NCBI GenBank assembly: GCA_039583695.1
Contig: JAVKSL010000003.1
Span: 16,313-80,312, forward strand
DNA from: Acidimicrobiales bacterium
GTDB lineage: Bacteria > Actinomycetota > Acidimicrobiia > Acidimicrobiales > JAJPHD01
Length of the DNA stretch: 64,000 bases
Direction of reading: 5' to 3'
Part shown: positions 17,164 to 64,000 of the stretch, piece by piece
Layout of the letters: the number at the start of each line of letters is the position of its first letter
How positions within the stretch are numbered: position 1 is the stretch's first letter
Program-made: the position numbers and the translations under genes
The notes under the pieces: generated by a model
The model's input: only the letters and a program-made list of their open reading frames with translations
What the model was told of the DNA's origin: nothing
The model's database searches: none

Positions 17164-17334
17164 CGGGGGCGCGATGATCGCGCCCAGGCTAGGACGATGG
17201 CGGTGGGGTCTTGCGATCCCCACCGCCGTGAGTTCCCCGTCATCAATCCGGAGAAGGAAAACCGCGGGTTCCTCCCCCCTGTTGGTTCGTTTCTGAGCAA
17301 GCCTTATACGGCTGACAGAGAAAGGCAGGTGCCG

Positions 17335-36067: not shown

Positions 36068-36070
36068 TGG

Positions 36071-37048: not shown

Positions 37049-37063
37049 CCTGCCGGCCCGGGC

Positions 37064-38119: not shown

Positions 38120-38143
38120 GAGCGGGTCCCTCCTTCTTTGGTT

Positions 38144-38181
38144 GGCCAAAAACTGGCCCTTCGGTCGGCCAATCACTGGCC
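38144..38181. promoter_or_regulatory. two tandem 15-bp palindromes GGCCA-N5-TGGCC (candidate ROK-repressor operators)
   Basis: GGCCAAAAACTGGCC (38144-38158) and GGCCAATCACTGGCC (38167-38181), centres 23 bp apart, in the divergent gap between the SBP gene (start 38119) and the ROK gene (start 38287). Confidence 0.35.
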
Positions 38182-38286
38182 GCTACGGTAAGGATACAAC
38201 AACCTTCTGATCTTGTCAAGCAGAAGTATGGGTAAATAAGAGAAAAGATTGGGGCCCTGGCGTAGAAGGTCCGGTATCCTGATGCG

Positions 38287-48748: not shown

Positions 48749-48961
48749 ATGACCGACACCGAAGCGTCCTTCGCCAGGACCTGGCTGTACCGATTCTCGC
48801 GACCAGGCGGCATCGAGATCGAGACCCAGGAGATGAATGGCGACGATACTGCAGGGACATACGCTCGCCAGCTATCCACAGCGCAAGAGACCCCGGTCAT
48901 CGTCGAGCGTCACGACCGCGTTGACTGGGAGTACGTGACCGAGGTCGACGAACGAGCCTGA
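48749..48961 (+). CDS. hypothetical small acidic protein (70 aa)
   Basis: Ordinary amino-acid composition, unlike the shadow ORFs. No motif recognised. Confidence 0.4.
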   Translation: MTDTEASFARTWLYRFSRPGGIEIETQEMNGDDTAGTYARQLSTAQETPVIVERHDRVDWEYVTEVDERA

Positions 48962-49073
48962 CTGCGGGTCGCTGCGGTTCGGGGCCCGACTGGCGCGCCT
49001 TGGCTAGCATGCTGGACGCATGACTGTGCTTGGCGGAGCCGGGCCGGCGCGGCCCGGGGCGAGGAGAGGATTC

Positions 49074-50507
49074 ATGCATCGGCTCAGCGGTGAAGCCGCA
49101 GGATTCCTCTCTCTCGAGCTTCCCATCCAGCCGATGAGCATCATGGCGCTTGCCGTGCTGCGCCCGGCGAGCGACCCGGATGGGTCACCGGTCCCGCTCG
49201 ACCTGCCCTATGTGGGCCTTCACATGGCCTCTCGCCTGGATGAGCTGCCAGCCTTGCGATGGCGGGTCCAAACGGTGCCCTTCGGGCTGCACCAGCCTGT
49301 GCTCGTCGAGGACCAGGCCTTCGATCTGGGCTTTCACCTTCGCGAGCACGTCCTGCCAGCACCGGGATCTGCCGATCAGCTGGACCGCTACTGCGCCGGG
49401 CTCGCAGAGCAGGCACTTGACCGGCGCCACCCGCTCTGGCAGCTCGTCTTGATCCATGGGCTGCACGGCGGTAGGCAGGTCGTGGTGTTGCGCATCCATC
49501 ACTGCCTCATGGATGGCTTTGCCGCCGTCGAGACCCTTTCGCGCATCTTCCCCCTAGGCGAGCACCAACCGGCGGCCCCTGGCCCTGAGTGGTATCCCGG
49601 TCCTCCCCCCCGTGCGTGGCGCCTGATCGTCGACGCTGCGGGTGGCCAGGCCCAGTCCGCAGCTCGCCTCCCGGCTCTTGTCAGCAAGACCCTCCGCAAC
49701 AACGCCGCCCTCAGGGCCCATCGAGCTGGGTCGGTCGCCGTACCCAAGCCACGGGTGGACGCGCCGCCGAGCCTGATCAACCAGGCCTATACCGCGGACC
49801 GTCGATTTGCCCGGGCCTCACTGTCCCTCGCGGCGGTAGGCCTGGTCAAGGAGGTGGCCGGCGCGAGCGTCAACGACGTAGCTATGGCGGTCGTTGCCGG
49901 GTCCCTGCGGTCCTACCTCCAGGCCCGGAGCGCTCTGCCGGCGAGGCCTCTGGTGGCGGCTGTGCCTGTGGGAATGGAGGAGCCGGGCGCGGCCCTCCGG
50001 ACCCACGGCAACCGCTTCTCCGGTCTGGTGACGTCGCTGGCGACCGACGTCGCTGAGCCATGGGACCGGCTCCGAGCCATCACCGCGGTGACTGCGGAGG
50101 CGAAGCGTCAGCTCGCAGTTCGCGGTCCCGAGCTGCTCCCGGACTGGCTCGACGTGCTGCCGCCGGCATTGGTCGAGCACGCCGTGCGGCATTACCATCG
50201 CAGGCGTCGCCGGCATCCGGCCAGGCTCGACGTCAACGTGGTGATCTCCAACCTTCGCGGCCCGAGCCCGGGACGCTACCTCGGTGCAGCCGTCGTCGAG
50301 GAGATGTACGTGGCCGGGCCGCCGAACAATGGCGTGGGGATCAACGTCGCCCTGATGGACTACGGAGACCGCCTGTTCTTCGCCCTCATGTGCTTCGCGG
50401 ACTCCGTCGAAGTGCCAGGGGAGCTGGTAGGGGGGCTCCATCACGCTCTGGATGACTTGGTGAGGGCCGCCGGGGCTATTGCTCCGCGCCGGCCCTCCCT
50501 GCGCTGA
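49074..50507 (+). CDS. wax ester synthase/diacylglycerol acyltransferase (WS/DGAT)
   Basis: SD GAGGAGAGGA then ATG 49074. Catalytic HHCLMDGFA (HHxxxDG). C-terminal ..NVVISNLRGP.. ..VGINVALMDYGDRLFF... Confidence 0.85.
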   Translation: MHRLSGEAAGFLSLELPIQPMSIMALAVLRPASDPDGSPVPLDLPYVGLHMASRLDELPALRWRVQTVPFGLHQPVLVEDQAFDLGFHLREHVLPAPGSADQLDRYCAGLAEQALDRRHPLWQLVLIHGLHGGRQVVVLRIHHCLMDGFAAVETLSRIFPLGEHQPAAPGPEWYPGPPPRAWRLIVDAAGGQAQSAARLPALVSKTLRNNAALRAHRAGSVAVPKPRVDAPPSLINQAYTADRRFARASLSLAAVGLVKEVAGASVNDVAMAVVAGSLRSYLQARSALPARPLVAAVPVGMEEPGAALRTHGNRFSGLVTSLATDVAEPWDRLRAITAVTAEAKRQLAVRGPELLPDWLDVLPPALVEHAVRHYHRRRRRHPARLDVNVVISNLRGPSPGRYLGAAVVEEMYVAGPPNNGVGINVALMDYGDRLFFALMCFADSVEVPGELVGGLHHALDDLVRAAGAIAPRRPSLR

Positions 50508-51690
50508 GGCTGGCTTGGGCGGCGAGCCTCTGGAGGCGCTCGGCTGCACCGGCGGGGCCGGGAGCAGCGGCAAAGGATCGACGCACGCGGTCGACCTCCG
50601 CCCTCATGCCCGGATCTGACAGCGCGCTCTGAACGGCCGCCCGCAGCTCGGGGGCGCGAACCCTGAGGAAGCTGATGCGGATGCCGCAGCCAGCCCGAAC
50701 GACCTGGTCGGCCACGATCGGCTGATCGTCTCTGATGGGCGCCATCACCAAGGGTACGCCCGCGGCCAGGCTCTCGCACACGGTGTTGTGCCCGGCGTGG
50801 GTCACCACCGCCTGCATCTGACCCAAGAGGGCGAGCTGGGGCACCTTGGGCCGGACCAGGATGTTGGCTGGCGTATCCGCCACAAGCCCGGGCGGCGCCA
50901 CGATCACCGCCTGGACGGGCAGGGATCCGAGCGCCTCGACCGCCACCGCGAAGAAGCGCTCACCTTCGATGTGGTTTATGGTGCCCAGGGACACCAGCAC
51001 TGCGGGCAGCCTGGCGTCCAGCCACGACCAGGGAAACTCGACTGTCTCGACGCGGCCAGCAATCGATGGCCCGATGAGCTCGTAATGCTCTGGAAACGCC
51101 CGCTCGCTGCTGACAAGGGCTTCGGTGGTGAACGCCAGCACCAGATACGGGGAGAAGAGAAGGTCCCCATCCTCGGCCAGTGCCCTGGGCAGGCCGGCTT
51201 CCAGCTGCAGGGCCAACCGGGCATCCCGGATGGCCCGGTCGACGAGGGGCCAGCCTGCCAGTGGGTCGGCAAGCTCTGCGGAAGTGGTGGCCAACGTGGC
51301 CCAGCGCAGGCCCAGCTTGCGGGCAACGACCGCACCGGCCAGCGCTTGCTGGTCGACCACCATGACGTCGGGCCGGAACTTTTCGACGGCCGCCCCGACA
51401 CCCTCGATCATGGCCCGGGCCATGGGAAGCAGCACCTCGAACCACAAGAACTTGAAGGCCGCGGCGGCACCCATCCCGAGGGCGCGGCCATTCAAAGTGT
51501 CGGCGAGCTCCTCCGCGTAGTCGGGAGCGGTCGGGAAGAAGCGCTGTCCTGCAGGCAGCAGCTCGTTGAGGACGCCTGGGATGCCGGCCCAGGCCGTCTC
51601 GTGGCCACGGCGAGCAAGCTCAGCTCCCACGGGGATGGTCGGGTAGATGTGGCCGGCGAAGTCGGGCACGACGAAGAGGAACCTGGCCAT
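50476..51690 (-). CDS. GT1-family (UDP-glycosyltransferase, MGT/macrolide-GT-like) glycosyltransferase
   Basis: MARFLFVVPDFAGHIYPTIPVGAELARRGHE... C-terminal donor-binding ..VVTHAGHNTVCESLAAGVPLVMAPIRDDQP... Confidence 0.85.
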   Translation of the reverse strand: MARFLFVVPDFAGHIYPTIPVGAELARRGHETAWAGIPGVLNELLPAGQRFFPTAPDYAEELADTLNGRALGMGAAAAFKFLWFEVLLPMARAMIEGVGAAVEKFRPDVMVVDQQALAGAVVARKLGLRWATLATTSAELADPLAGWPLVDRAIRDARLALQLEAGLPRALAEDGDLLFSPYLVLAFTTEALVSSERAFPEHYELIGPSIAGRVETVEFPWSWLDARLPAVLVSLGTINHIEGERFFAVAVEALGSLPVQAVIVAPPGLVADTPANILVRPKVPQLALLGQMQAVVTHAGHNTVCESLAAGVPLVMAPIRDDQPIVADQVVRAGCGIRISFLRVRAPELRAAVQSALSDPGMRAEVDRVRRSFAAAPGPAGAAERLQRLAAQASLSAGRAGAEQ

Positions 51691-51699
51691 GCCGTGGCG

Positions 51700-52491
51700 T
51701 CAGGTGCAGGGGGTGAGAGCTTTGTTCTGGCCCCTGACCCACTTGACGGCATGATCGCGAACCACCAGGCTGGCCTCGGCGAGCACACGGTGGGTGCACC
51801 CCGGGACGATCAGCTGCTGGCATCCGGGAATGTGGCGGTCACGCGCCCCAGCCTCCTCAACGACATCCGAACCGCTGCCGTAGATGCTGAACACCGGGCA
51901 GCGAAGCGCCTCCAGCGACTCGCTCGGCAGGTGTGCCTCGGTCAAGAGGTCCTCGAGCACGCTGGTAGTCCGGAGCAAGGTCTCGGCGCGTTGCGCCCAG
52001 CGGATACGCGACGGGCTGTTGCCGATCACGCTCTGGCGGTCGGCTTCGTCGTCGCCAAAGCCGACGATGCCCTCTGCCAGGCGCCGGCCCCAGCCCTCTC
52101 CGGAGAGGTGTGGCTCGATGAGGAACAGGCTTGCCACACGCTCGGGGTGGTGATGAGCGAAGAAAAGCGCCACGATTCCCCCGAAGCTGTTGCCGAAAAG
52201 ATGAACAGGTTCGTGGATGTCCCAGGCATCAAGCAGGCCAACCAGGTCGGCGAGATGGTCGGCGACGGAGTAGCTGCGCTCCGGCACCTCGGAGCGACCG
52301 TGGCCGCGCAGGTCGTAGAGGTACACGTCTGACTCGACTGCAACTCCGCCCACGATGGTGAGGTAGAAGCTCGACATGTCCACCGAGAGCCCGTGAACCA
52401 TCACGACCTTGGGCCGGCGCTCGCAAGGTCCGGGGGCCCTTTGCAGCACCTCGACATGGAAGCGCAGGCCGTTGGCCACCGTCTCAGACAC
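51700..52491 (-). CDS. alpha/beta-hydrolase (candidate chain-releasing thioesterase/esterase)
   Basis: GTG 52491 lies 8 nt inside the ACP 3' end. ..VVMVHGL.. Nucleophile elbow GNSFGG (GxSxG). ..PGCTHRV.. is the His region. Confidence 0.8.
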   Translation of the reverse strand: MSETVANGLRFHVEVLQRAPGPCERRPKVVMVHGLSVDMSSFYLTIVGGVAVESDVYLYDLRGHGRSEVPERSYSVADHLADLVGLLDAWDIHEPVHLFGNSFGGIVALFFAHHHPERVASLFLIEPHLSGEGWGRRLAEGIVGFGDDEADRQSVIGNSPSRIRWAQRAETLLRTTSVLEDLLTEAHLPSESLEALRCPVFSIYGSGSDVVEEAGARDRHIPGCQQLIVPGCTHRVLAEASLVVRDHAVKWVRGQNKALTPCT

Positions 52492-52816
52492 CGGGGACCC
52501 TGTTGATCGAGTCCACGATGAGCTCCACCAGGCTGCCGACGCGCAGCGCGATGATCGTGTCCAGGTCCATGCCGGCCAGCCAGGCCACAAAGTCCACCTT
52601 CTCGCCGTAGTGTGCCCGGAGCTCTTCTGCCAGGATGACGAACTGGATGCTCTCCAGGCAGAGGTCTTCACTGAACGAAGATTGCATGCCGACGTCTTCC
52701 TCGGCGAGGAAGTCGGTGCCGATGACCTTGACGAGCATCTGGGTCACCTCGAGGAGGACCTCCTCGGGTCGGGCTGGAGCAGCGCTGCGGTCAAAGATGG
52801 GTGAGGACGTTGACAA
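52484..52816 (-). CDS. discrete acyl carrier protein
   Basis: ..PEEVLLEVTQMLVKVIGTDFLAEEDVGMQSSFSEDLCLESIQFVILAEELRAHYG.. is an ACP four-helix pattern with the phosphopantetheine Ser in LES(I). The start is uncertain. TTG 52816 is preferred (AAAGGGG SD, 26-nt overlap with PKS-B). Alternatives are GTG 52747 and ATG 52738. Confidence 0.65.
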   Translation of the reverse strand: MSTSSPIFDRSAAPARPEEVLLEVTQMLVKVIGTDFLAEEDVGMQSSFSEDLCLESIQFVILAEELRAHYGEKVDFVAWLAGMDLDTIIALRVGSLVELIVDSINRVPGV

Positions 52817-55800
52817 CCTCAGCCCCTTTCGTCGTGAGTGAGACGACGGGCTCGTTCGATGCGGCTGACCCCAGGCGGGTCCAGCCGACGACAAGCTCGC
52901 CTCCGTCGTGGCCCTGGACGATCTCGGTGTCCACCCACCGCTCGCCGACGCAAAGGGACAGGCCTGCGACAGCGGTCACCTCGAACTGCCTCGGGCGTCC
53001 GGACAGGCCCGTGCGGGCGGCCTTGGCGACCGCCTCCTTGGCGACCCAGAACCGGGTGACCCAACGGTCGCGCTCTGCGTCGGGGAGCAGATCCTGCTCG
53101 GCGGGAGTGAGCACAAGTCGATCGAAGCGACCATCACGCGGCGCCACCGACTCGATATCGATGCCGACGGACGCCCCCTCGCTCGCGATGGCGACGGCAA
53201 GGGTACTGCTGTGCGCCAGGGAGATCTGCAGGTCGGCGGGGAAGCTCCCCCGGACCAGTGGCTCGCCGTGCTCGCCGGTGGCGAGCTCGACCTCCGCCGG
53301 GAACACCGGCCCCGCACCGTGGCTCCACAGCCAGTCGCGCACGGCGTCCTTTGCCGCAATCCTGCCCAGGAACCACTGCCTCTGTCTGAGTGGGTTGAAC
53401 GCCGCGTACTGGGCCTGCTCGGGGCCGGTCAGGTACTGGCGCATCACCAGGTCGCGAGAGGCCGTCCGGCGCCACCGCTCCGGGGCCAGCACCCAGCCAC
53501 CGGGCTGGGCCTGTGACGCGAGGTGATGCTCGGGGAAGCGCAACAACTCCCACAACACCTCGTCAGTCTCGAAGCGATGCTCGGTCCAACCGATCACCCT
53601 GGCGAACAGCCGTTTGCCCACGACCAGGTCGAGGTCGGCGCGTATGGTGGTGTCCAGGACACTTGTGATGCGCGCGGTGCAGTCCACCACAGTACCGACG
53701 GGGGGCTCGGGCCCGAAGAGATCGATGGACTCCACCCCTGTTGGCAGCACGATGCGGTCAAGGCCGGTACGGGCCATGGCCCAGTAGCCGACCAGCTGGC
53801 CGGCACCGTCGAGGAGGGAGCCCGGCGCGTCGAGGACCTGGATTCGTCCCCGGATGCCGGCGTCGCAGATCCCTTGGATATCGCGTACGGCCTGGAACTG
53901 CGGTCCGTGAAACATCCACCTCTGCTCGTAGAGCTCCTCGGCGCCGATCACGGAGGGCTCCTCGTGGGGCAGGAGAGCCGGCTGCACCTCGGGGGCGCTG
54001 GGTGCTCGCTCGCTCGTGACCACCCTCGCCTGCGAGTAGCCCTCGATCGCCACCCTGACCTGGTCTGTGCCCTCGGTGACTGCGCTCAGCACGACATCGG
54101 CGGTCGGCACCACAGCCAGCCAGCGCGTGGAGCGGATCCGCTCCACCCTGGTGACCACACGGTCGGGTCGCATAGCCGCTGCGCGCTCGACGAGCCAGCC
54201 GATCATGGTGGTGAGCGGGACCACCGGGAACCGGTCGGAGATCGAAGGCCATCGATCTCGCTGGCGCACCAGGCAATGGTCTGCCAGCCACGGGAGCTCC
54301 TCGACGGAGATGTGCCGCTCGATCCGGTTGGGCGAGGCCGGCGCCGGAGCCGCTGGGGCGAGTGCAGCGGGGACTGGAGCCGCTGGGGCCGGAGCCGTTG
54401 GGGCTGGCGCGGGGACCGGAGCCCCTGGGGCCGGAGCCGCTGGGGCTGGCGCGGGCGGGGTGGCCGGGAGTGGAGAGGCTCCGGGAAGGCGTCCCAAGGG
54501 TGGAAGGGCCGACAGCGACACCAGCGGGGTGCCGAGGAGCACCGGGCGCGTGTGGATCGAAGAGGCGGGGGCAGCGGGCAGACGCGGGCGGTGCCCAGCG
54601 ACCTCCGTGTCGGGCATGAGCCGATCGAAGCAGACGTCGGCTCCCTCGACCCACAGCGCGGCCGCCACCCTACGCAGCTGCTCCAACCCTTGCGACCTGG
54701 CGGTGGCGGCGGCGGCAGCCAGATGATCGCGTTCCGCCAGCGTGTCGTCCACGAAGGCCGCCAGCGAGCCGATGCCGACCTGGACGAACGCGCGGACCCC
54801 CTCCTCGTGCAGGCGCAGCACCAGCTCACGGAAGCGAACGGGCTCGACCAGGTGGCGGATCGCCAGGTCTCGTACGGCCTCGGGATCGTCGGGATAGGGC
54901 TCGCACGTCGTCGCCGACCACAACGGTAGCGAGGCCGCCTCGAGCGGGAGGAGGGCCAGCGCCTCGCGTACCCTGGCGAGCTGCGGTGAGAACATAGGTG
55001 AGTGAAACCCCGACCGGAACGCGAGCTTGGAGGCGATGACCTGTCGTGCCAGTAGACACCCCAAGGCCTGCTCGATGGCTGCCTCGGTTCCGCACAGGAT
55101 CGACTGGTGGGGACAGTTGTCATGAGAGACCACCACTTCAGCGATCCCCTGGATGGCCGCAGCTGCCTCTTCGGCAGCGCAGCCTGCCGAGGCGTACACC
55201 AACCCGGGCATGCCAATGGCGGCCGGGTCGAGCCGGGCCAGAAAGGGCCCAGCTGTCTGCGGACGGACCATGCCGGCGGTGACCATCCCGTTCCATTCGC
55301 CGATGCTGTGGCCAGCGACCATGTCGGGGCGCACTCCGATCCCGCCCAGGGCGCTATCCAGCAACCGGCCCAGAGCGAATACGGCCAGCCCGTGTCGACC
55401 TAGCTCGGCGGTATCGGCCGGCTCCGGAGGGAGCAGGCCAAAGCGGGCGGCCACGTCGTCGAGCCGTGCGGGCATGGTGGCCTCGATCCCAGGGAAGAGG
55501 AACGCCACGCTCCCCCCGCCGGCCACAAGGGGCCGGGGGCTGAACCAGATATCCATGCGGCCACGCCAGGCTTCCCCCCTGGACACCACCTTGCGGGCCA
55601 GCGCCATCCGCTGGGGCGTCGGGCTGACGACGGCGAGGCGCAAGGAGCCCCGGGCGCCCGGGGCGCATGAGGCCTCGCCGAGCTGGGCCAGTAACGATCG
55701 GACGTCCTCGGCGGCGCAAAGGACGAGAGCAGGTGTGCCGGGCGTCCGGCGCCTGAGCACGCTGAGCCCAGCCCGGTGCTCCTCGAGCACGGCGTGGGCG

Positions 55801-57185: not shown

Positions 57186-60100
57186 GCTGTCAGCACCCCC
57201 TCAGGCCCGGCGTCGGTACTCGCCATGCCCCCCGCCACGTCGTGCCGGTCCGTTTGCGCCCGCATCACGATCACCGCTGCGCTCGACGGGGAGCCAAGGG
57301 CCAGCTCGCGCAAGATGCAGGCAACCCCGTCCTCGGGATCGATCAGTCCGACCCCACGTCGGGCAAACTCCCGCTCGAGGCTCTCCGACACCATCCCGGT
57401 GCCGCCCCACGGACCCCAGTGGATGCAAACGACCCGGTCGGCAACGGTCCTGTTGTGAGCCCAGGCCAGGGCTTCGAGGGCCTCGTTCGCGGCGGCATAG
57501 TCGATCTGGCCTCGGTTGCCGAATGCACCGGCCATGCTGCCGAACAGGATGACGAAGCGCAAACCGGGCCGCACAGCCCCCAGCAGGATCCGTGCGCCAT
57601 CGACCTTGGTGTCGTAGACGCGAGCAAAGGACTCGACGGTCTTGTCCGCCGCCAGACGGTCCTCGACCACCCCCGCCCCGTGGATGATGCCGTCGAGGCG
57701 GTCCCAACGGCGGTAGATGTCATCCACCAGGGCGCTCATCGCGGGTGTGTCGCGCACGTCGAGGGCGTGGTAGTTGACAGACCCGCCGCAGGCCTGGACC
57801 TCGGCCAGGGTGCGACGGAGCTGGCGCTGGGCCATGATCCGCCGGCAGTCGGACTCTATGGCGCTCGCGACGTTGTTGCCCGCGCCTGCCAGGAGCTGGC
57901 GCAACGCCTTGTGATCCGCACAGGCGGCGGTGGCTGGCGCCTCGGGCCCATCGGGCAACGGGGTCCGCCCGACGAGCTCGAGATGGCAGCCCTGGTGAGC
58001 CAGGGCGACAGCCACTGCCGCGGTGATTCCCCGGCCGCCGCCCGTGATAAGCACAACATCGCCCGCCTCGGGGCGAACAGCGCAGCCGCCTTGCTGGACG
58101 AGCGGTTCGGGGACCGTGCGAAGCCGCAGGCGGCGCCCTGAGCGATAACCCACTTCCACCAACAAGTCGGTGGAGGTCAGCTCGGCTAGCAGCTGGCGCG
58201 CGGCGAGCTCTGGTGCGTCCCGGGGGTCGAGGTCCACCGAACGAACCCTGAGGTCGGGGTACTCCCGAGCCAGGCTCCTGGCCATACCCCGCACGCCAGC
58301 GCCCGGCGGGACCTGCCCCGCTTCGCTGGCGAGCACATCGCGACCGAAGCTCCCCCCGGTCCCGGTGACCATCAGGAGGAATCGCAGACCAGCTAGGCGG
58401 CCGACTAGCTGGGAGAACACCGTTGCGGGCGGGGCTGCGCAGGCTGAGAGCGCTCCGAGATGGATGAGGTGCTCGACAGCCCACGGCTCATCCAGGGCGC
58501 CGACGCTGGCGTGCGCCCCGCACCGTCGGAGCAGCTCTGCGAGAGCCTGGGCGATCCCGGCTCCGTCGTCGGTGATGAAAAGGCTCTGCCCAGCCAGCGC
58601 CGCGTCGCTGCCGAACGGCGAGCCGGCCTGCTCGACCCTCTGGACGAAGCGCGCCGCTCGTAGGGGTGGCTGGGGAACAGGGGCAGCAGCTGGTCTCATG
58701 GGCTCCGGAGGGACGTCGGCCCGGGCCACGATCCACTCCACGATGGCCGACAGGGTCTTGAGGACCGAAAGCTCCTCGACCATGGAATCGTCGAGCCCAT
58801 CAGCTCCTGTGCTGAGGCCCACCCGGCCCACGAGGTCCCCGACGATCTCTATGCGCTTGATCGAGTCGATGCTGAGATCGGCCTCCAGGTCGAGATGCGC
58901 CCCGAGCATCTCGACCGGGTAGCCGGTCCGTTCGCTCACCACCGCGACGACGGCTGCCAGCAGGTCCTCGCGGCTGCGGGGTGGCCGTGGCGCAATGGCG
59001 CGAGTCAGCTCCACCTCCGGGCCGGGCGGGCTGGTAGCGCCGACCGCGGCCCCGTTCGAGTCGACTGGAAGCATCGCCGGCACCACAAGCGGGAGTACAG
59101 GCATCGCGGGTGGTGTCACGGGCGCCATCGGCGGACCGTTCCGGGCATCCAGGTAGCGGGCTATGGCCACCTGACCGGCGCTGGCCACCTGGCTGAGCAT
59201 GCGCATGTACTCGAGCATCACGGGGTCGCCCTCCGGCATCGGCACCGCCAAGGCCAAGGGGGCGGAGGCGGTGGGGGCGGTGGGGGCGGTGGGGGCGGAG
59301 GCGGTGGGGGAGGAGGCGGTGGGGGAGGAGGCGGTGGGGGCGGAGGCGGTCGGGGCGGTCGAGGCGGAGCGGATGCCTCGAAGCTTCGTCGCTGGCTGCA
59401 AACCGCCCGCCACCTGGGTGCCGTCGGGGCCGCGCACCAGGTGACCGTCGATCGCCCACACCCCCGCAGTCGATTGCCGGGCCCCGATCTGGGCTATGTC
59501 CCGACCCTCGAAGAGGGGGGCGAGGAGGAGCGGCACCCCGGCGACACCAAGGGAGGCTACGGCGTGAAGGAGCTGCTCGATCCCGTGGACACCGGGCGCA
59601 TCGACGCAGATGCTCTGGTGGGGCCGGCCGGCGAGGATCTGGCCCACCAGGCGGGTGAGGACCTGGCCGGGTCCGGTCTCGACGAAGGTGCCAATACCCG
59701 AGTCGTACATCGCTTCGACCTGCTCTCGAAATCGCACCGGGTTGTCGATCTGCGCGGCGAGGGTCCGCCGGATGCCGGCGGCGTCGTTGGGGTAGGCGGT
59801 GGCCGTGAGGTTGGACCACACTGTCAGAGCCGGGGAGCAGATCTCGACCTTGTCGAGCGCCGTCGCGAACCTGGTGGCTGCGGCGCCCATGAGCGGGCTG
59901 TGGAAGCCACACGACACCGGTAGCGCACGGTTGGCCAGTCCCTGCGCGGCCAGCCACCTTGCGGCCTCGGCCACGTCGCGCGCCGGACCCGAGATGACCA
60001 CCTGGTTGGGCGAGTTGTCGTTGGCCACGACCAGGCCTGGCCAGGCTCCCACCAGCGCGGCCACCCGCTCAGCGGGTGCGGCGACGGCGACCATTGCGCC

Positions 60101-63100
60101 GGGGTCGTGCGGGCACGACTCTGCCATCGCCTCGGCCCGCTGCTCGCTCAGGCGGATGAGGTCTGCCGCGTCGAACGCTCCGGCGGCCGACAGGGCCACC
60201 ATCTCTCCATAGCTGTGACCACCGAGGGCATCGGGGACCACACCCAGGCGGTCGAGCAGCCGGGCCACCGCCAGCCCGGCCATCCCCAGGGTGGGCTGGG
60301 CCACGCGGGTGTCGTCCTGGGCAACCCGCTGGCCTTCGGTCCGACCCGGAACCGCGGAGGTCGGCGGGAACATGAGTGTGAGATAGGACTCGCCCAGACG
60401 GAGGAGCTCGTGCAGCCAGGGAAAAGCCACGAACAGCTCCGCCAGCATGGCGGGACGTTGGCTGCCCTGCCCGGGGAAGAGGAAGGCCAGCCCCCCCGGC
60501 CCGGCCCTGTCGGCGCTGAGATAGACCCCCTGGCCCGCACATCCGGCGGCTGCTGCGGCGAGCTTGGCCCGCAGGTCTTCCATGCCCGTGGCCACGATCG
60601 CCGCGCGGGTCGGACCCGATCCCCGGCACCAAAGGTCGCCGGCCAGATCGCGCAACCGGGCCCCGTTTGGCTCGTCGAGTCGACGGGTCAGGCCCTCGAT
60701 CTGCTCGGCGAGGTCCCGTCGATCTTCGCCGCGAAAGCAGAACAGCTCTGCAGGCCAGCGCTCCAGGCCGTGGGCGGCGCGATCGCGGTCGTGAGAATCC
60801 ATGACCACATGGAAATTGGATCCGCCGAACCCGAACGCGCTGACACCCGCGCGCCGGCGCGTCTCCGACCACGGCAGGGCCGTCGCGCTGAAGGTGAATG
60901 GGCTGGTGAAGGGGTCGTAGGCTGTGCTCGGATGGGTGATGTGCGCGCTCGGGGGGCGCACGGCGTGGTACAGGGCCAGGCTTGCTTTGACGAGCCCGGC
61001 CATGCCCGCCGCGCATTTGGTGTGCCCGATCTGGGCTTTCACGGAGCCGAGGGTGCAGGAGCCCGGCGCGCTGCCCGCATCGGAGAAGAAGCCCGTGAGA
61101 GTCGACAGCTCGGTCCGGTCGCCGACGACTGTCCCGGTGCCGTGGGCCTCGACGAGGCCGACCGTTGCTGGTGAGGCTCCCGCCCGCTGGTAAGCCCGCT
61201 GGAGGGCCACCCTCTGGCCTTCGCCCCGCGGGGCGGTCAGCCCGAGGCCGCGGCCGTCGCTCGACGCCCCGATGCCCTTTATGACCGCGTAGATGCGGTC
61301 ACCGTCGCGGGTGGCGTCGGCCAGTCGTTTGAGCACCACGCAGGCCACACCTTCGCCGAGGACGATCCCGTCGGCGTCCTCGTCGAAGCTCTTGCAGGCG
61401 CCGGTCGGCGACAGGGCGCCGACGCTGGCGAATAGCTGGTAGTCGTAGATGCCGTTGTGGAGGTCAGCCCCGCCGCACAGGACCATGTCGCTTCCGCCGC
61501 CGCCCAGCTCCTGGCAGGCCAGATGGATCGCGGCCAGGGAGGCTGCGCAGGCGGCGTCGACGGAGTAGTTGGCCCCACCGAGGTCGAGCCGGTTGGCGAT
61601 GCGCCCGGCAACCACGTTGCTCAGCACCCCGGGGAAGGAGTCCTCGGTCAGCGCCGGCAGGTGTTCGTCGAGGGCAGGAGGCAGCGAGCCGAGATAGCCT
61701 GGAGCGAGGGCCCGGAAGACATAGGCACTGGAAAGGTCCGATGCGCCCTCGACGCCGAAGATCACCGAGGTGCGTGAGCGGTCGAACCACCGTCTGGCAT
61801 AGCCGGCATCGGCGAGGGCGTTGGCCGCAACATCCAGGCTGAGCAGCTGGACCGGCTCGATCGCCCCCAGGGACGAAGGCGGGATCCCGTATTTCATCGG
61901 GTCGAACGGGGCCGCTCCCAGGAAGCCACCCCAGCGTGACGGGGTGACGGTCTCCGCTGGCCCCATCGCCTCCGCCGAGCAGTACAGCTCGGCGTCCCAC
62001 CTCCCGGCGGGGACCTCGCCCACGTGGTTGGTGCCGGCGACGATGTTCGCCCAGTATTGGGCGACATCCTCAGCGCCAGGAAACAGGCAGGCTATGCCTA
62101 TCACGGCCACGTCGAGCGGTGCGGCCAGGGGGGCCTCGGCCAGGAGCGCGCCGTCCAGCACGGCGGCGCTGGCCACCGACACGTCGTGGTGGAGGGTGGC
62201 AATAGTCGTTGGTTCGCTCCGCAGGGTGGCCACCTCTCCGATCATGTAGAGGCCTTCGCGGCGCTGCTGGTCCTCGTCGACCTCGACCAGGTGGTCCCCG
62301 TCACGCCTTAGGCCCTTGGCCGCCATCCGCAGGCGTCCGAGATTGAGGTCCTCGAGAGCGGCCCAGCGGTCGGGTCCGGTTACGCCCGCTGCCTCCAGCG
62401 CCCTGCGCTCATCGTCGAAGCGACGCAGAAATGGGGTCTGTGCGCAGCGGGTGCTGTGGCCCGGAGACGTCTCGAGCAGCGCCGTGGCCTCACAGGCTAT
62501 CGCCGCCGCCTGGAAAGGTTCCCTTATGGCCCCGGTCGACACGGCCTCTTGGGTGAACAGGTAGGCGGTCCCCATAAGCAGGCCGATGCGGGCACCTCGC
62601 TCTGCCAGCGGCGCCGTCATGGCTGCGACCATCGCGGCGGACCGAGCGTCGTGGATGCCACCGGCGAAGAGCAGGTCCATGCCCTCGACGTCGCCCTCGA
62701 GCAGTTGGGTTACCTGTTGCTCCCAGAGCACGAAGCTGGACCTGGGACCGACGTGGCCACCGCACTCGCGACCCTCGAAGACGAATCGCCGCGCTCCCTG
62801 CCTGACGAACAGCGCGAGCAGCCCGGGCGAGGGAACGTGCAGGAAGGTGGCGATGCCCGCCTCTTCGAGAGGGCGCGCCAAGGATGGCCGGCCGCCGGCG
62901 ATGAGCGCGGCTGTCGGGCGGGCTTCCAGGACAGCTGCCAGCTGCCCGGCCCGAAGCTCGGGGGGCACGAAGCCGAGGATGCCCGCTCCCCAAGGCCGGC
63001 CGGCCAGCGCGGTGCTGGTCTCGGCGAGCAGTGCGCGGACCGCCTCCGGCGTCATCAGGGCCAGAGCCAGGAAGGGCAGGCCGCCCCCTTGCGCCACGGC

Positions 63101-64000
63101 CAGAGCGAACTCCGGGCGGTCGCTGACCCTAGTCATGGGGCCTTGGACGATCGGATAGCGCAGCCCGAAAGCGGCGGCGAAGGCCGACCCCGATCCGAGC
63201 ACCTGGCTGGCGGCAGCCGAACGCAGCTGGGACCTGATGGCGCTGCGCACCGCATGGACCACGCCTCCGCCAGTGTGGAACCTCTCGTGCATCCTCGCCG
63301 CGAAGGCCGCATCCTGGCCGGCTGGGAGCAGCGCGGTGGCAAGCTCGACCCCGAGACGCGACGCCACCCCTGCAGGATCTGTGTCCTCGGCGGTGTCGCC
63401 AGCAGCGATGCCCGGTCGGACCAGAAGCCGGTGACCGCCCAACACCGCAGTCTCGCTGCCGTCCATGGAGGCGATTGCGGCGCGCACCTCGGCGACCAGG
63501 TTCATCTCCCTCACTAGGGCGAGCTGCGCATCCAGCACGACGCCGGTGGCGCCGCCCGCGATCGCGGCCGCGGCCGTGTGCAGTCCGATGCCCCCCTGGC
63601 ACCACAGGGGAACATCCAGTGCCGCGACGAGCTGTTGGAGCAGGACGAATGCCCCGGTCCCTCCGACGCGGCCCCCGCTCTCGCTGCCTTTGGCTACGAG
63701 GCCGTCGGCGCCCTTGTCGACGGCGTCGCGTCCTGAGCCCAGCGAGGTCACCTCCACGATCACCCGACGGTCACCCCAACGCTCCAACGAGGCTTGGCAC
63801 AGCGCGGACCCGCCAGCCAGGACCACGGTGCTGACTGCCGCGGGCAGCTCCGAGGGTGCGACGACATCGGTGTCGCCGACCCGGATACCGAAGGTGGCGT
63901 CCCTGTCAATACCGGCGGCACAGCTGGCGATGGCGGCATGCGCGTGGGCGGCACAGGGCCCGACGTCGAGCACACCGAAGGCCCCCGCTCGGACAAGCGC
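57182..64000 (-). CDS. type I PKS/Pfa-like synthase subunit A (5'-truncated by window edge): ER'-ER-KS-AT-ACP-KR
   Basis: The frame stays open to 64000 (..ALVRAGAFGVLDVG..). FMN/NMO-type domain 1 ~63400-64000+ (KGSESGGRVGG). PfaD-like ER ~62400-63180 (YPIVQGPMTRVSD, GRECGGHVGP). KS ~60790-62115 (VDAACAASL, EAHGTGT, GHTKCAAG). AT ~59640-60500 (GHSYGE). ACP ~58760-58990 (LSIDSIKR). KR ~57300-58650 (ITGGGRGIT, YAAANE). Confidence 0.9.
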   Translation of the reverse strand, partial: ALVRAGAFGVLDVGPCAAHAHAAIASCAAGIDRDATFGIRVGDTDVVAPSELPAAVSTVVLAGGSALCQASLERWGDRRVIVEVTSLGSGRDAVDKGADGLVAKGSESGGRVGGTGAFVLLQQLVAALDVPLWCQGGIGLHTAAAAIAGGATGVVLDAQLALVREMNLVAEVRAAIASMDGSETAVLGGHRLLVRPGIAAGDTAEDTDPAGVASRLGVELATALLPAGQDAAFAARMHERFHTGGGVVHAVRSAIRSQLRSAAASQVLGSGSAFAAAFGLRYPIVQGPMTRVSDRPEFALAVAQGGGLPFLALALMTPEAVRALLAETSTALAGRPWGAGILGFVPPELRAGQLAAVLEARPTAALIAGGRPSLARPLEEAGIATFLHVPSPGLLALFVRQGARRFVFEGRECGGHVGPRSSFVLWEQQVTQLLEGDVEGMDLLFAGGIHDARSAAMVAAMTAPLAERGARIGLLMGTAYLFTQEAVSTGAIREPFQAAAIACEATALLETSPGHSTRCAQTPFLRRFDDERRALEAAGVTGPDRWAALEDLNLGRLRMAAKGLRRDGDHLVEVDEDQQRREGLYMIGEVATLRSEPTTIATLHHDVSVASAAVLDGALLAEAPLAAPLDVAVIGIACLFPGAEDVAQYWANIVAGTNHVGEVPAGRWDAELYCSAEAMGPAETVTPSRWGGFLGAAPFDPMKYGIPPSSLGAIEPVQLLSLDVAANALADAGYARRWFDRSRTSVIFGVEGASDLSSAYVFRALAPGYLGSLPPALDEHLPALTEDSFPGVLSNVVAGRIANRLDLGGANYSVDAACAASLAAIHLACQELGGGGSDMVLCGGADLHNGIYDYQLFASVGALSPTGACKSFDEDADGIVLGEGVACVVLKRLADATRDGDRIYAVIKGIGASSDGRGLGLTAPRGEGQRVALQRAYQRAGASPATVGLVEAHGTGTVVGDRTELSTLTGFFSDAGSAPGSCTLGSVKAQIGHTKCAAGMAGLVKASLALYHAVRPPSAHITHPSTAYDPFTSPFTFSATALPWSETRRRAGVSAFGFGGSNFHVVMDSHDRDRAAHGLERWPAELFCFRGEDRRDLAEQIEGLTRRLDEPNGARLRDLAGDLWCRGSGPTRAAIVATGMEDLRAKLAAAAAGCAGQGVYLSADRAGPGGLAFLFPGQGSQRPAMLAELFVAFPWLHELLRLGESYLTLMFPPTSAVPGRTEGQRVAQDDTRVAQPTLGMAGLAVARLLDRLGVVPDALGGHSYGEMVALSAAGAFDAADLIRLSEQRAEAMAESCPHDPGAMVAVAAPAERVAALVGAWPGLVVANDNSPNQVVISGPARDVAEAARWLAAQGLANRALPVSCGFHSPLMGAAATRFATALDKVEICSPALTVWSNLTATAYPNDAAGIRRTLAAQIDNPVRFREQVEAMYDSGIGTFVETGPGQVLTRLVGQILAGRPHQSICVDAPGVHGIEQLLHAVASLGVAGVPLLLAPLFEGRDIAQIGARQSTAGVWAIDGHLVRGPDGTQVAGGLQPATKLRGIRSASTAPTASAPTASSPTASSPTASAPTAPTAPTASAPLALAVPMPEGDPVMLEYMRMLSQVASAGQVAIARYLDARNGPPMAPVTPPAMPVLPLVVPAMLPVDSNGAAVGATSPPGPEVELTRAIAPRPPRSREDLLAAVVAVVSERTGYPVEMLGAHLDLEADLSIDSIKRIEIVGDLVGRVGLSTGADGLDDSMVEELSVLKTLSAIVEWIVARADVPPEPMRPAAAPVPQPPLRAARFVQRVEQAGSPFGSDAALAGQSLFITDDGAGIAQALAELLRRCGAHASVGALDEPWAVEHLIHLGALSACAAPPATVFSQLVGRLAGLRFLLMVTGTGGSFGRDVLASEAGQVPPGAGVRGMARSLAREYPDLRVRSVDLDPRDAPELAARQLLAELTSTDLLVEVGYRSGRRLRLRTVPEPLVQQGGCAVRPEAGDVVLITGGGRGITAAVAVALAHQGCHLELVGRTPLPDGPEAPATAACADHKALRQLLAGAGNNVASAIESDCRRIMAQRQLRRTLAEVQACGGSVNYHALDVRDTPAMSALVDDIYRRWDRLDGIIHGAGVVEDRLAADKTVESFARVYDTKVDGARILLGAVRPGLRFVILFGSMAGAFGNRGQIDYAAANEALEALAWAHNRTVADRVVCIHWGPWGGTGMVSESLEREFARRGVGLIDPEDGVACILRELALGSPSSAAVIVMRAQTDRHDVAGGMASTDAGPEGVLTA
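59261..59370 (-). repeat. 9/15-bp tandem repeats encoding (A/S)PTA(S) linker between AT and ACP
   Basis: ggcggaggcggtgggggcggtgggggcggtgggggcggaggcggtgggggaggaggcggtgggggaggaggcggtgggggcggaggcggt... It encodes TAPTASAPTASSPTASSPTASAPTAPTAPTASAP. Confidence 0.8.

Follow-up and report, generated by a model that had tools for sequence, protein, structure and literature searches.

The far end of the window (the whole 64,000-nucleotide stretch that was analysed) raises two questions: whether the compact lipid synthase encoded there is a new kind of machine, and what it is likely to make. Positions 49074-64000 hold an intact six-gene lipid-building cluster, composed of five minus-strand genes and a convergent gene for a WS/DGAT-family acyltransferase. 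The genes and the domains of the first synthase protein are as follows.

57182-64000, minus strand: PKS-A, ArsA-like (Pfam and NCBIfam), with pseudo-ER, ER, KS, AT, ACP and KR
63209-63973, minus strand: ER1 of PKS-A, degenerate NMO/FabK-like pseudo-domain (partial FabK match, profile positions 111-225)
62174-63190, minus strand: ER2 of PKS-A, enoyl reductase of the FMN type (FabK/NMO), intact (match covers positions 8-265 of the 307 in the FabK model)
60668-62113, minus strand: KS of PKS-A (PF00109/PF02801)
59633-60484, minus strand: AT of PKS-A (PF00698 and FabD-like TIGR00128; GHSYGE at 60203-60220)
58739-59011, minus strand: in-line ACP of PKS-A, single copy (Ser in LSIDSIKR, 58853-58876)
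57380-58054, minus strand: KR of PKS-A (PF08659, E 1.1e-32; ITGGGRGIT, Tyr in YAAANE)
52791-57185, minus strand: PKS-B, 1464 aa, TTG start, with KS, AT, DH and PPTase (Pfam)
52484-52816, minus strand: discrete ACP, about 110 aa (weak PF00550 match; carrier Ser in LCLESIQF)
51700-52491, minus strand: alpha/beta-fold serine hydrolase, 263 aa (Pfam Abhydrolase_1/6)
50476-51690, minus strand: GT1-family (GT-B fold) glycosyltransferase, 404 aa (UDPGT and EryCIII-like_C matches)
49074-50507, plus strand: WS/DGAT-family O-acyltransferase with the active-site motif HHCLMDG (PF03007 and PF06974)

Gene junctions and synthase domains

The minus-strand genes follow each other in the order PKS-A, PKS-B, small ACP, hydrolase and GT1, overlapping or tightly spaced, all four junctions being either an overlap or a 9-nt gap. 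The PKS-A stop (TGA, 57184-57182) and the PKS-B start (TTG, 57185-57183) have the letters TTGA in common, the ACP starts (TTG 52816) 26 nt within the 3' end of PKS-B, whose stop is at 52793-52791, and the hydrolase, starting at GTG 52491, shares 8 nt with the end of the ACP gene (stop 52486-52484). The hydrolase stop (51702-51700) is followed after 9 nt by the GT1 start (ATG 51690), and the 3' end of GT1 (50476) is overlapped over 32 nt by the WS/DGAT gene (49074-50507, plus strand). These coordinates bear out the five-gene layout with a convergent WS/DGAT given in the initial annotation. Upstream of GTG 63973 the PKS-A frame stays open without a stop as far as the end of the window, where the N-terminus is cut off. 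The full-length orthologue in a relative that is 92% identical (L001) has 2302 aa as compared to 2263 aa here, which suggests that about 39 N-terminal residues are missing; judged from this same relative, the cluster is not the end of a larger modular PKS continuing beyond position 64000, a possibility that had been raised earlier.

Every domain previously listed from motifs was confirmed, and the catalytic motifs quoted for them are all present, each conserved across 64-90 relatives. The exception in interpretation concerns the enoyl reductases, described before as two FMN-type domains. ER2 is intact, with the motif GRECGGHVGP at 62744-62773 (invariant form GxECGG-H), the His of which is kept throughout the 64 aligned relatives with one exception, a non-homologous alignment. 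ER1 is self-similar to ER2 within PKS-A and carries GSESGG-R at 63659-63688, in which the catalytic His is absent; as nearly all relatives, and the ArsA-like protein of Beijerinckia, lack this His too, ER1 is a degenerate NMO-like domain conserved as a pseudo-domain. The description of the reductase as PfaD-like could be verified solely at the level of the FabK/NMO type.

The PKS-A KS has its active-site Cys in DAACAAS (61538-61558) and its two His in EAHGTGT and GHTKCAAG, motifs conserved in 64-66 relatives. The GHSYGE of the AT is invariant in 67/67 relatives and the KR Tyr in 73/73. The in-line ACP was missed by Pfam, its motif Ser being kept in 72/72 relatives; the region aligns with both of the tandem ACPs of the Beijerinckia ArsA-like protein.

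In PKS-B the domains lie at residues 10-504 (KS), about 545-860 (AT), about 955-1245 (DH) and about 1250-1440 (a PPTase of the Sfp type), and the catalytic residues C213, H348, H393, S627, H970, D1126, D1343/E1345 and K1383 are kept in 85-90 of 90 homologues. Residues 963-1464 gave an AF2 model with a pLDDT of 90.7, on which Foldseek matched the DH to the DH domains of MAS-like, CurJ and PpsC proteins; by its modelled fold this DH is a PKS-type double hotdog and not of the FabA type. Together PKS-A and PKS-B hold all activities for a fully reducing cycle, and this domain content agrees with the earlier description of a compact Pfa-related lipid synthase with built-in ER and PPTase.

Downstream genes

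The discrete ACP keeps its Ser in 83/83 relatives; an orthologue on a Streptomyces plasmid (L087) is annotated as acyl carrier protein, and the one of S. avermitilis (L088) has a PP-binding match. The hydrolase has a triad of Ser102 (the nucleophile, in GNSFGG), Asp209 and His234, invariant or nearly so in 39 homologues. Its AF2 model (pLDDT 89.9) has generic esterases and an enol-lactonase as Foldseek neighbours. In relatives its gene always lies between those for the ACP and GT1, it is duplicated in tandem in 16/80 loci, and in one locus (L005) it is fused to GT1. We propose the hydrolase as a candidate off-loading enzyme, whether as a thioesterase or as an O-acyltransferase. For GT1 the nearest curated subfamily is MGT, with 170 bits against a cut-off of 260 bits, and the nearest solved chains are Kcn28, YjiC and CalG. 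The donor-site motifs HAGHNT..E and DDQ are kept in 75 relatives.

The WS/DGAT protein scores 344 bits against TIGR02946, over the cut-off of 310 bits, and probably starts at 49074 (477 aa, as in L001) and not at the ORF maximum of 49020. As its gene is convergent with GT1, it does not share a transcript with the other five. A WS/DGAT adjoins GT1 directly in 8 of the 85 related loci, with 88% identity in the close relatives L001 and L002 and 51-55% identity in six distant ones, in both orientations. This association with the cassette is more than chance. The part in the pathway assigned to it before stands to this extent, with the correction that WS/DGAT is a lineage-specific accessory gene outside the conserved core.

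Known synthases of the same type and their distribution

The statement that this architecture matches no characterised system does not hold as far as the architecture is concerned. The three-gene core was tabulated as Type M (and N/O), alongside ArsA, in the supplement of Shulse & Allen 2011, who give the Type M secondary-lipid synthase as ER-KS-MAT-ACP-KR, KS-AT-PPTase and ACP, with SAV_7360-7362 of S. avermitilis as an example. SAV_7361 is discussed in PMC6042109, and PMC13291983 describes the arrangement as "fused pfaDA and pfaBC with PPTase"; these papers, of 2018 and 2026 respectively, both still give the cassette product as unknown, and no product of any cassette member was found in the searchable literature. 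SAV_7361 is the direct orthologue of PKS-B (55% identity over KS-AT, 41% over DH-PPTase) and has the identical five-gene neighbourhood. The locus is thus a widespread orphan pathway of an already catalogued type and not a new kind of machine.

By sequence, the nearest characterised relative is the Azotobacter ArsA/ArsD type I fatty acid synthase, which makes C22-26 acids that stay on the ACP domain of ArsA and are passed directly to type III PKSs. The comparison was made with the Beijerinckia cluster, itself just a homologue of the characterised Azotobacter system, and gave 42.8% identity over 1618 aa between PKS-A and the pBIND02 ArsA homologue, and 31% identity (E 2.5e-58) between PKS-B residues 913-1402 (DH-PPTase) and the ArsD homologue. 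ArsD is without the KS-AT pair which is present in PKS-B, and the Beijerinckia ArsA-like protein has tandem ACPs whereas PKS-A has a single in-line one.

A relative is encoded in at least 493 species genomes, and gene context was counted in 85 fetched related loci. Whole cassettes, with the full set of 12 core parts in unchanged order including ACP-hydrolase-GT1, are present in 62 of these. The gene after GT1 is a methyltransferase in 37 loci or a WS/DGAT in the 8 mentioned, never both. The cassette is common in Streptomyces and Pseudonocardiaceae and occurs also in Acidobacteriota and Myxococcota, a patchy distribution across phyla that extends to plasmids, both linear and circular.

Proposed product and alternatives

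We consider it probable that the locus belongs to the ArsA/ArsD-related cassettes of Type M and makes a long-chain glycolipid. PKS-A and PKS-B would act as an iterative type I fatty-acid-synthase-like enzyme, the domains being observed and the activity assigned by homology. The PPTase of PKS-B would turn both ACPs, in-line and discrete, into holo-ACPs, and malonyl units would be condensed and fully reduced many times to a long, largely saturated acyl chain, as ArsA/ArsD suggests, probably retaining at least one hydroxyl or free carboxyl. By analogy to the KS domains of PfaA and PfaC, the KS-AT of PKS-B might handle part of the elongation range. The hydrolase would then take the chain off the in-line or discrete ACP, through hydrolysis or by passing it on to a hydroxyl acceptor, a role suggested because of gene order, translational coupling and the fusion in a relative. 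GT1 would add a sugar from a nucleotide-sugar donor, and in this lineage the cluster-specific WS/DGAT may add or form an ester on the product, at a position where most relatives have a SAM methyltransferase instead. Release of a long, reduced chain followed by its glycosylation, as originally envisaged, remains the best reading, with ACP-hydrolase-GT1 downstream of the synthase in essentially every relative. The end product is most likely a long-chain glycolipid, its chain length, degree of reduction, sugar and site of glycosylation or acylation being features that we infer.

A specific version of this explanation, which we regard as unlikely, is that the products are macrocyclic dilactone glycolipids of the glucolipsin, fattiviracin and cycloviracin type. 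The synthase would build a 3-hydroxy very-long-chain acid, GT1 would glucosylate the 3-OH, the hydrolase would dimerise or cyclise the product by esterifying C1 to the glucose C6', and the methyltransferase variants would yield 2-O-methyl sugars. The actinomycete compounds have C19 to C33 hydroxy acids with glucose on the 3-OH and the carboxyl ester-linked to the sugar C6', and cycloviracins contain 2-O-methylglucose (PMC4365757). The cassette supplies the long-chain synthase, the glycosyltransferase, an ester-handling Ser hydrolase and often a methyltransferase, its family is common in Streptomyces and Pseudonocardiaceae, and no gene cluster for these compounds was found in the searchable literature. 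The argument is, however, purely one of enzyme inventory fitted to structure. The 2-methyl and iso-branched chains of glucolipsins and the several glucoses and extra hydroxyls of fattiviracins are not accounted for by a single GT and no C-methyltransferase, and the cassette is spread far more widely (Acidobacteriota, Myxococcota) than the known producers, such as S. microflavus No. 2445, Kibdelosporangium albatum, S. purpurogeniscleroticus and Nocardia vaccinii.

The very-long-chain acids could alternatively serve for neutral or envelope lipids that carry no sugar (wax esters, triacylglycerols and the like) via WS/DGAT, GT1 being unrelated or protective. The WS/DGAT protein truly belongs to its family, with HHxxxDG intact, plain saturated acids are what the ArsA/ArsD relatives make (C22-26), and GT1 falls in a broad macrolide-GT-like group which includes inactivating enzymes. 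This is quite unlikely, with GT1 in the core of essentially all relatives and WS/DGAT in only 8/85, and with a hydrolase-GT1 fusion in existence; the methyltransferase in place of WS/DGAT in most loci suggests the tailoring of a common glycosylated scaffold.

A heterocyst-glycolipid-like pathway to long-chain fatty alcohol or diol glycosides has in its favour the logic of a long chain with a sugar and the presence of Pfa-related KS-AT, FMN-type ER, glycosyltransferase and PPTase. The proteins of the hgl island include a thioester-reductase domain and a CLF, neither of which was found in any of the six proteins here; the cluster has no HgdBC-type exporter beside it, its glycosyltransferase is GT1/MGT-like and PKS-A resembles the ArsA type much more closely, so that we hold this pathway to be improbable.

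That the cassette encodes a true PUFA synthase or a polyene synthase of the enediyne type (PKSE) is highly improbable, even though both KS regions match PfaA (TIGR02813) best among the curated models and the PPTase fused C-terminally to the DH resembles PKSE. Also in favour is the second-best PDB sequence match of PKS-B, 6riw "ORF10", which we take for the KS-CLF didomain of PfaC from the PUFA synthase of Moritella marina. The PfaA model gives 819 bits, below its cut-off of 1010 bits, and the single in-line ACP, the lack of a CLF and the PKS-type DH in place of FabA-type DH/isomerase domains uphold the earlier view that this is not a true PUFA synthase. The intact ER speaks against a conjugated polyene, and neither a hotdog thioesterase nor enediyne cassette genes were found.

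Finally, the cassette might be the housekeeping fatty acid synthase of the organism, as once suggested for Renibacterium, which is without fabA and fabZ and in which Type M might be the only complete pathway (Shulse & Allen). The patchy distribution across phyla and on plasmids and the tight coupling to GT1 and variable tailoring genes make this scarcely credible. Streptomyces hosts, for their part, are known to possess FAS II.

Gene layout and borders of the cluster

The cluster is located between 49 and 64 kb of the window, which has a GC content of about 68%, and is composed of five co-directional genes on the minus strand, encoding two polyketide synthase proteins (PKS-A and PKS-B), a discrete ACP, an alpha/beta hydrolase and a GT1 glycosyltransferase, and of one convergent gene on the plus strand encoding a WS/DGAT. 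The genes and their junctions are the following:

57185-57182, minus strand, PKS-A stop and PKS-B TTG start, with TTGA common to both
52484-52816, minus strand, discrete ACP, with a TTG start at 52816, 26 nt within the 3' end of PKS-B
52491 (GTG start), minus strand, hydrolase, overlapping the ACP stop by 8 nt
51690 (ATG start), minus strand, GT1, starting 9 nt after the hydrolase stop
49074-50507, plus strand, WS/DGAT, overlapping the 3' end of GT1 by 32 nt

The translational coupling and the overlaps reported in the initial annotation are borne out by these coordinates. The PKS-A frame has no stop upstream of the GTG at 63973, and the protein counts 2263 aa in the window versus 2302 aa in the closest relative (L001, 92% identical), so that the window end removes approximately 39 N-terminal residues of PKS-A. 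The sequence past 64000 was judged from this same relative, where upstream of PKS-A are found a 447-aa protein without Pfam match, a 52-aa ORF, a GerE regulator and an ABC transporter. Judged from L001, the synthase is thus not one end of a larger modular PKS, a possibility raised initially. In L001 the gene of the 447-aa protein (1751-3094) stops 2 nt short of the start of PKS-A and is therefore probably co-translated with it; its counterpart would lie beyond position 64000 of the window, and the other loci showed no homologue.

On the opposite side, L001 is collinear with window positions 48930-64000 and then continues with the genes of window positions 33413-39477. The 9.4-kb segment 39478-48929, located between the ROK/sugar-ABC genes and the WS/DGAT, is thus an insertion relative to L001. 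It encodes a FAD-binding protein, a small class I methyltransferase, a ParE-toxin-like ORF, a ClpX-type zinc-finger/sigma70-region-3 protein, a glyoxalase and an AraC regulator. As these genes are unrelated and absent from L001, the segment was rejected as part of the cluster, and it resembles an insertion specific to the strain. Elsewhere the window carries ordinary transport, sugar and redox genes, and neither tRNA nor Rfam matches were found in it.

Domain organisation and catalytic residues

The domain order that had been read from motifs agrees with Pfam and NCBIfam. PKS-A is composed of an NMO/FabK-type ER region, KS, AT and KR, and its ACP, absent from the Pfam matches, is evident from the LSIDSIKR motif, while PKS-B is composed of KS, AT, PS-DH and an ACPS-type PPTase. 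In Pfam the discrete ACP is a weak PP-binding match and the third minus-strand product an alpha/beta hydrolase. GT1 has UDPGT and EryCIII-like domains and scores 170 bits with TIGR01426 (MGT subfamily), below the cut-off of 260 bits; its nearest solved relatives are natural-product and promiscuous UDP-glucosyltransferases. The WS/DGAT has the two domains PF03007 and PF06974, exceeds the cut-off of TIGR02946 (344.4 versus 309.95 bits) and contains the motif HHCLMDG. The top solved-structure matches to the KS regions are generic modular PKS KS-AT domains, which do not discriminate between synthase classes.

PKS-A carries two enoyl-reductase-like regions, which the initial annotation had counted as two FMN-type ERs. 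This holds for the second, ER2, which aligns to positions 8-265 of the 307 positions of FabK and keeps the GxECGG-H motif, in which the His serves catalysis in FabK/NMO enzymes. The first, ER1, aligns to the middle of the FabK model only and reads GSESGG-R. Across 64 related loci the His of ER2 is kept, except in one non-homologous alignment, and the corresponding position of ER1 is occupied by Arg, Leu, Ser, Pro or Ala. Since the catalytic His is replaced, ER1 is a conserved pseudo-domain. In the window ER1 extends over 63209-63973, and the His of its GxExGGH motif is exchanged for Arg here, for Gln in Beijerinckia and for other residues elsewhere, the second copy being intact. This N-terminal NMO-like region is a pseudo-enzyme conserved among ArsA-type synthases, found in most related loci, and perhaps has a structural or docking role.

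All other catalytic positions are conserved across the family. In PKS-B the KS residues Cys213, His348 and His393, the AT residue Ser627, the DH residues His970 and Asp1126 and the PPTase residues Asp1343/Glu1345 and Lys1383 are kept in 90 homologues, and in PKS-A the KS Cys-His-His, the GHSYGE motif, the ACP Ser and the KR Tyr are kept in 64 to 73 relatives. The Ser of the discrete ACP (LESI) is found in 83 of 83 relatives, the hydrolase triad Ser102/Asp209/His234 is conserved across its family, and so are the donor-site motifs of GT1 and the HHxxxDG motif of the WS/DGAT in their relatives. With these catalytic residues conserved family-wide, the enzymes are, from their sequences, likely to be active. 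As the KS of PKS-B keeps Cys-His-His, it is not a chain length factor (CLF).

The AlphaFold model of PKS-B 963-1464 (pLDDT 90.7) has an N-terminal double hotdog, and the Foldseek neighbours of the DH are PKS dehydratases, namely those of a MAS-like PKS, of CurF/H/J and of PpsC (TM approximately 0.6 on the target). The domain had been called a PKS-type DH from its motifs, and model and neighbours confirm that name. A FabA-type DH/isomerase in PKS-B is ruled out by the same data, together with the match to PF14765.

For the hydrolase, the Foldseek neighbours of the predicted structure are generic esterases and an enol-lactonase, and since these are generic, hydrolysis and O-acyl transfer are indistinguishable. 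The model of the OlsI-type O-acyltransferase spans most of the protein at 35 bits versus a cut-off of 385, which gives only a hint of such a likeness. A role like that of RhlA was rejected, as the match to RhlA (8ik2) is weak (E 3.5e-5, N-terminal half) and worse than those to generic esterases.

Relationship to known secondary-lipid synthases

The cluster is a new member of a catalogued cassette, the Type M secondary-lipid synthases of Shulse & Allen 2011. It shares homology with the fatty acid synthase ArsA/ArsD and carries the less common WS/DGAT accessory. The supplementary table of that work lists the core ER-KS-MAT-ACP2-KR / KS-AT-PPTase / ACP, with Type M members in Actinosynnema mirum, three Frankia, Renibacterium salmoninarum and S. 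avermitilis (SAV_7360-7362; NP_828538-828536), and with Types N and O in Chryseobacterium and Dinoroseobacter/Parvularcula. Type P of the same table, composed of ER-KS-MAT-ACP-KR and a 'PPTase' protein, includes ArsA/ArsD from the alkylresorcinol operon of Azotobacter vinelandii. In the window the first protein is ER-KS-MAT-ACP-KR with a single ACP, according to Pfam, NCBIfam and motif conservation, the second is KS-AT followed by the PPTase, with the PKS-type DH in between, and the discrete ACP (52484-52816) is directly downstream, overlapping the 3' end of PKS-B. The core ER-KS-MAT-ACP-KR / KS-AT-(DH)-PPTase / ACP is therefore common to both. There are differences, since the window has one in-line ACP versus two in the 2011 table and a WS/DGAT beside GT1, and the table omits the DH domain and the hydrolase and GT1 genes.

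Orthology to the S. avermitilis protein SAV_7361, which was recovered by a search seeded with the Actinokineospora orthologue, extends to the gene neighbourhood. PKS-B of the window shares 55% identity with SAV_7361 over KS-AT and 41% over DH-PPTase, and the neighbourhood of SAV_7361 consists of PKS-A, PKS-B, ACP, alpha/beta hydrolase and GT1. The same genes, together with a SAM methyltransferase, form the annotated cassette of a linear Streptomyces plasmid (L087). The interpretation put forward initially, of a Pfa-related assembly line for a glycolipid or wax-type lipid, is largely sound; its claim that the architecture matches no characterised system fails, given that the core is the catalogued Type M and the relative ArsA/ArsD is characterised. 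No characterised member of the Type M cassette itself was found in the searchable literature. For SAV_7361 and SACE_2343, both PKSs that carry a PPTase, a 2018 paper (PMC6042109) states that the products 'have not been identified', and a 2026 paper (PMC13291983) likewise leaves the Type M product without identification.

The closest characterised system is ArsA/ArsD. A tblastn search of plasmids with the DH-PPTase half led to pBIND02 of Beijerinckia indica, the second Type P genome, whose cluster carries a type I PKS of 2674 aa, two type III PKSs and a 629-aa 'PPTase superfamily' protein, and also an unrelated glycosyltransferase and ABC/RND transport genes. The sequence comparison refers to this Beijerinckia homologue and not to the Azotobacter vinelandii protein itself, and PKS-A shares with it 42.8% identity over 1618 aa (ER1-ER2-KS-AT) and 37.8% over KR, which makes it almost as close as the Streptomyces orthologue (47.6%). 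In the Beijerinckia protein too a pseudo-ER (GHEAGG-Q) precedes the intact ER, and PKS-A has the whole ArsA-like ER-KS-MAT-ACP-KR architecture of this homologue, including the tandem of pseudo-ER and ER. PKS-B 913-1402 shares 31% identity with the 629-aa ArsD-like protein (E 2.5e-58), and the DH His, FHGP, LLDxxGQ and the PPTase motifs are common to the two. This homology means that PKS-B is an ArsD-type DH-PPTase, a stand-alone protein in Beijerinckia, fused here behind an extra KS-AT pair.

The chemistry expected of the cluster is like that of ArsA/ArsD, iterative and fully reducing, the long saturated chain remaining attached to the ACP. In the 2008 work of Miyanaga, C22-C26 acids were reportedly obtained from malonyl-CoA. 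The two systems differ in their surrounding genes. With both Beijerinckia type III PKSs (ArsB/ArsC) as tblastn queries no match was found in the 64-kb window or in the related loci L001-L085, and in place of the type III PKS genes the window has the discrete ACP, the alpha/beta hydrolase and GT1. This exchange would point to glycosylation, and not to a phenolic head group, as the downstream chemistry. On pBIND02 (L086, 15728-20351) the Ars-like cluster is followed by a glycosyltransferase unrelated to GT1 of the window and by ABC/RND export genes, and these genes suggest possible glycosylation and export of the phenolic lipid of Beijerinckia as well.

The heterocyst glycolipid (Hgl) synthase islands resemble the cluster in combining a Pfa-related synthase with a glycosyltransferase for a long-chain glycolipid, whereas the window is without thioester reductase, CLF and HgdBC exporter and has a different GT family and domain packaging. 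In Pfam searches none of the six proteins has an NAD_binding_4-type reductase domain, and no HglC containing a CLF was found among them. For the Pfa PUFA synthases the likeness is in the FMN/FabK-type ER, in the iterative mode and in the KS regions, each of which has PfaA as its best-scoring curated model. For this model (TIGR02813, cut-off 1010) PKS-A with 819 bits and PKS-B with 441 bits remain below the family level. Against a Pfa synthase are also the single DSI-type ACP motif in PKS-A instead of tandem ACPs, the lack of a KS-CLF didomain, both KSs keeping Cys-His-His and no third KS-like region being present in PKS-A/PKS-B, and the sole DH, which is a PKS-type double hotdog (PF14765) and not a FabA-type DH/isomerase. 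In addition, the functions are packed in two polypeptides with a fused PPTase, versus a separate PPTase in Pfa.

The rhamnolipid pair RhlA/RhlB, an alpha/beta-fold enzyme acting on acyl-ACP and then a GT-B glycosyltransferase in the same gene order, is comparable by analogy only. An enediyne PKSE, a single KS-AT-ACP-KR-DH-PPTase polypeptide without ER that is accompanied by a hotdog thioesterase and enediyne cassette genes, does not correspond to a cluster which has its domains split over two proteins, an intact ER, a second KS-AT and an alpha/beta-fold hydrolase.

Distribution, accessory genes and proposed product

Full-length homologues of PKS-B number in the thousands, at identities around 50%, and come mostly from soil metagenomes, assigned to Acidimicrobiales, Pseudonocardiaceae and other Actinomycetota. 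The best named relative is 70% identical and from an Acidimicrobiales MAG, by which the uncultured, high-GC host probably belongs to the Acidimicrobiia. In a scan of GTDB species, each represented by a single genome, with the aligned DH-PPTase region as query, at least 493 species encode a relative, and 80 loci were retrieved. These include many Streptomyces, Aquihabitans, Thermomonospora echinospora, Spirillospora and Actinokineospora, and MAGs of Kofleriaceae/Myxococcales, Acidobacteriaceae, WPS-2 and Lysobacterales.

Synteny was analysed by tblastn of each domain of the window against the related loci. The order pseudoER-ER-KS-AT-ACP-KR / KS-AT-DH-PPTase / ACP / hydrolase / GT1 is kept in every locus that is long enough; sixty-two out of 85 loci carry all twelve parts, and the remaining ones are interrupted by contig ends. 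Downstream of GT1 a methyltransferase-domain protein (Methyltransf_23, often about 600 aa) is present in 37 loci, a WS/DGAT in eight and neither in 27, and there are no loci with the two together. In six distant loci the WS/DGAT shares 51-55% identity with that of the window and abuts GT1 convergently or co-directionally, so that the association is recurrent, though the WS/DGAT lies outside the core. A restricted clustering of downstream ORFs gave no other widely conserved accessory gene besides these two.

Some loci show variations of the downstream genes. Two tandem alpha/beta hydrolase paralogues are located between the ACP and GT1 genes in 16 of 80 loci, mostly Myxococcota and some Actinomycetota, and the hydrolase of the window resembles the GT1-proximal paralogue of such pairs. 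In one related locus (L005, 15278-17254) hydrolase and GT1 are fused in a 658-aa protein. The accessory methyltransferase, for example that at 16943-18871 of the related locus L004, has about 600-640 aa, of which the N-terminal 330-400 or so have no Pfam match, and carries a Cys-rich CxxC...CxxC stretch before Methyltransf_23.

Type M synthases are known from genomes since 2011 and occur in actinomycetes used as models or in industry (S. avermitilis, Amycolatopsis, Frankia) and in many uncultured soil bacteria. The window adds one more member, the machinery is not new in kind, and a specialist would recognise the cluster. What is added here are the conserved hydrolase-GT1 pair and the alternation of methyltransferase or WS/DGAT, from which a concrete and testable glycolipid hypothesis follows. 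The question of the product dates from 2011 and is now approachable in cultivable hosts.

Condensing, reducing and carrier domains are all present in the cluster, along with a PPTase in cis, translational coupling and conserved synteny with ACP, hydrolase and GT1. By homology to ArsA/ArsD, malonyl units would be elongated iteratively and fully reduced to a long saturated chain, and the second KS-AT could, speculatively, extend the range of chain lengths. From the gene context, the Ser-Asp-His hydrolase would take the chain from a carrier protein and GT1 would then glycosylate it. A synthase almost always followed by ACP, serine hydrolase and GT1 points to a glycolipid, and a sixth gene that alternates between methyltransferase and WS/DGAT, the two never occurring together, points to capping of a hydroxyl or carboxyl of the product. 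These alternatives suggest that this group of a common scaffold may be capped by methylation or by acylation.

The enzyme inventory fits the macrodiolide glycolipids of actinomycetes, and, speculatively, the product class may match them; the Type M cassette may be linked to orphan antiviral glycolipids. Glucolipsin, fattiviracin and cycloviracin contain C19-C33 3-hydroxy acids that bear a 3-O-glucose and are esterified through C1 to glucose C6', and some have 2-O-methyl sugars (PMC4365757). In the literature searched no gene cluster is assigned to any of the three. Taken as a whole we consider it rather unlikely, though worth stating, that the five-gene cassette is the route to a very-long-chain glycolipid class, perhaps including macrodiolides of the fattiviracin/cycloviracin/glucolipsin type, made by hundreds of soil species of Actinomycetota, Myxococcota and Acidobacteriota, with methyltransferase and WS/DGAT as alternative caps and with an additionally O-acylated, not yet described glycolipid as the product of the WS/DGAT sub-lineage.

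The copy of Streptomyces sp. NBC_00984 (L087, 4066-19037), a full cassette with a 355-aa SAM methyltransferase, is located on an 846-kb mobilizable linear plasmid beside IS3 transposase genes, a position that fits horizontal spread of the cassette.
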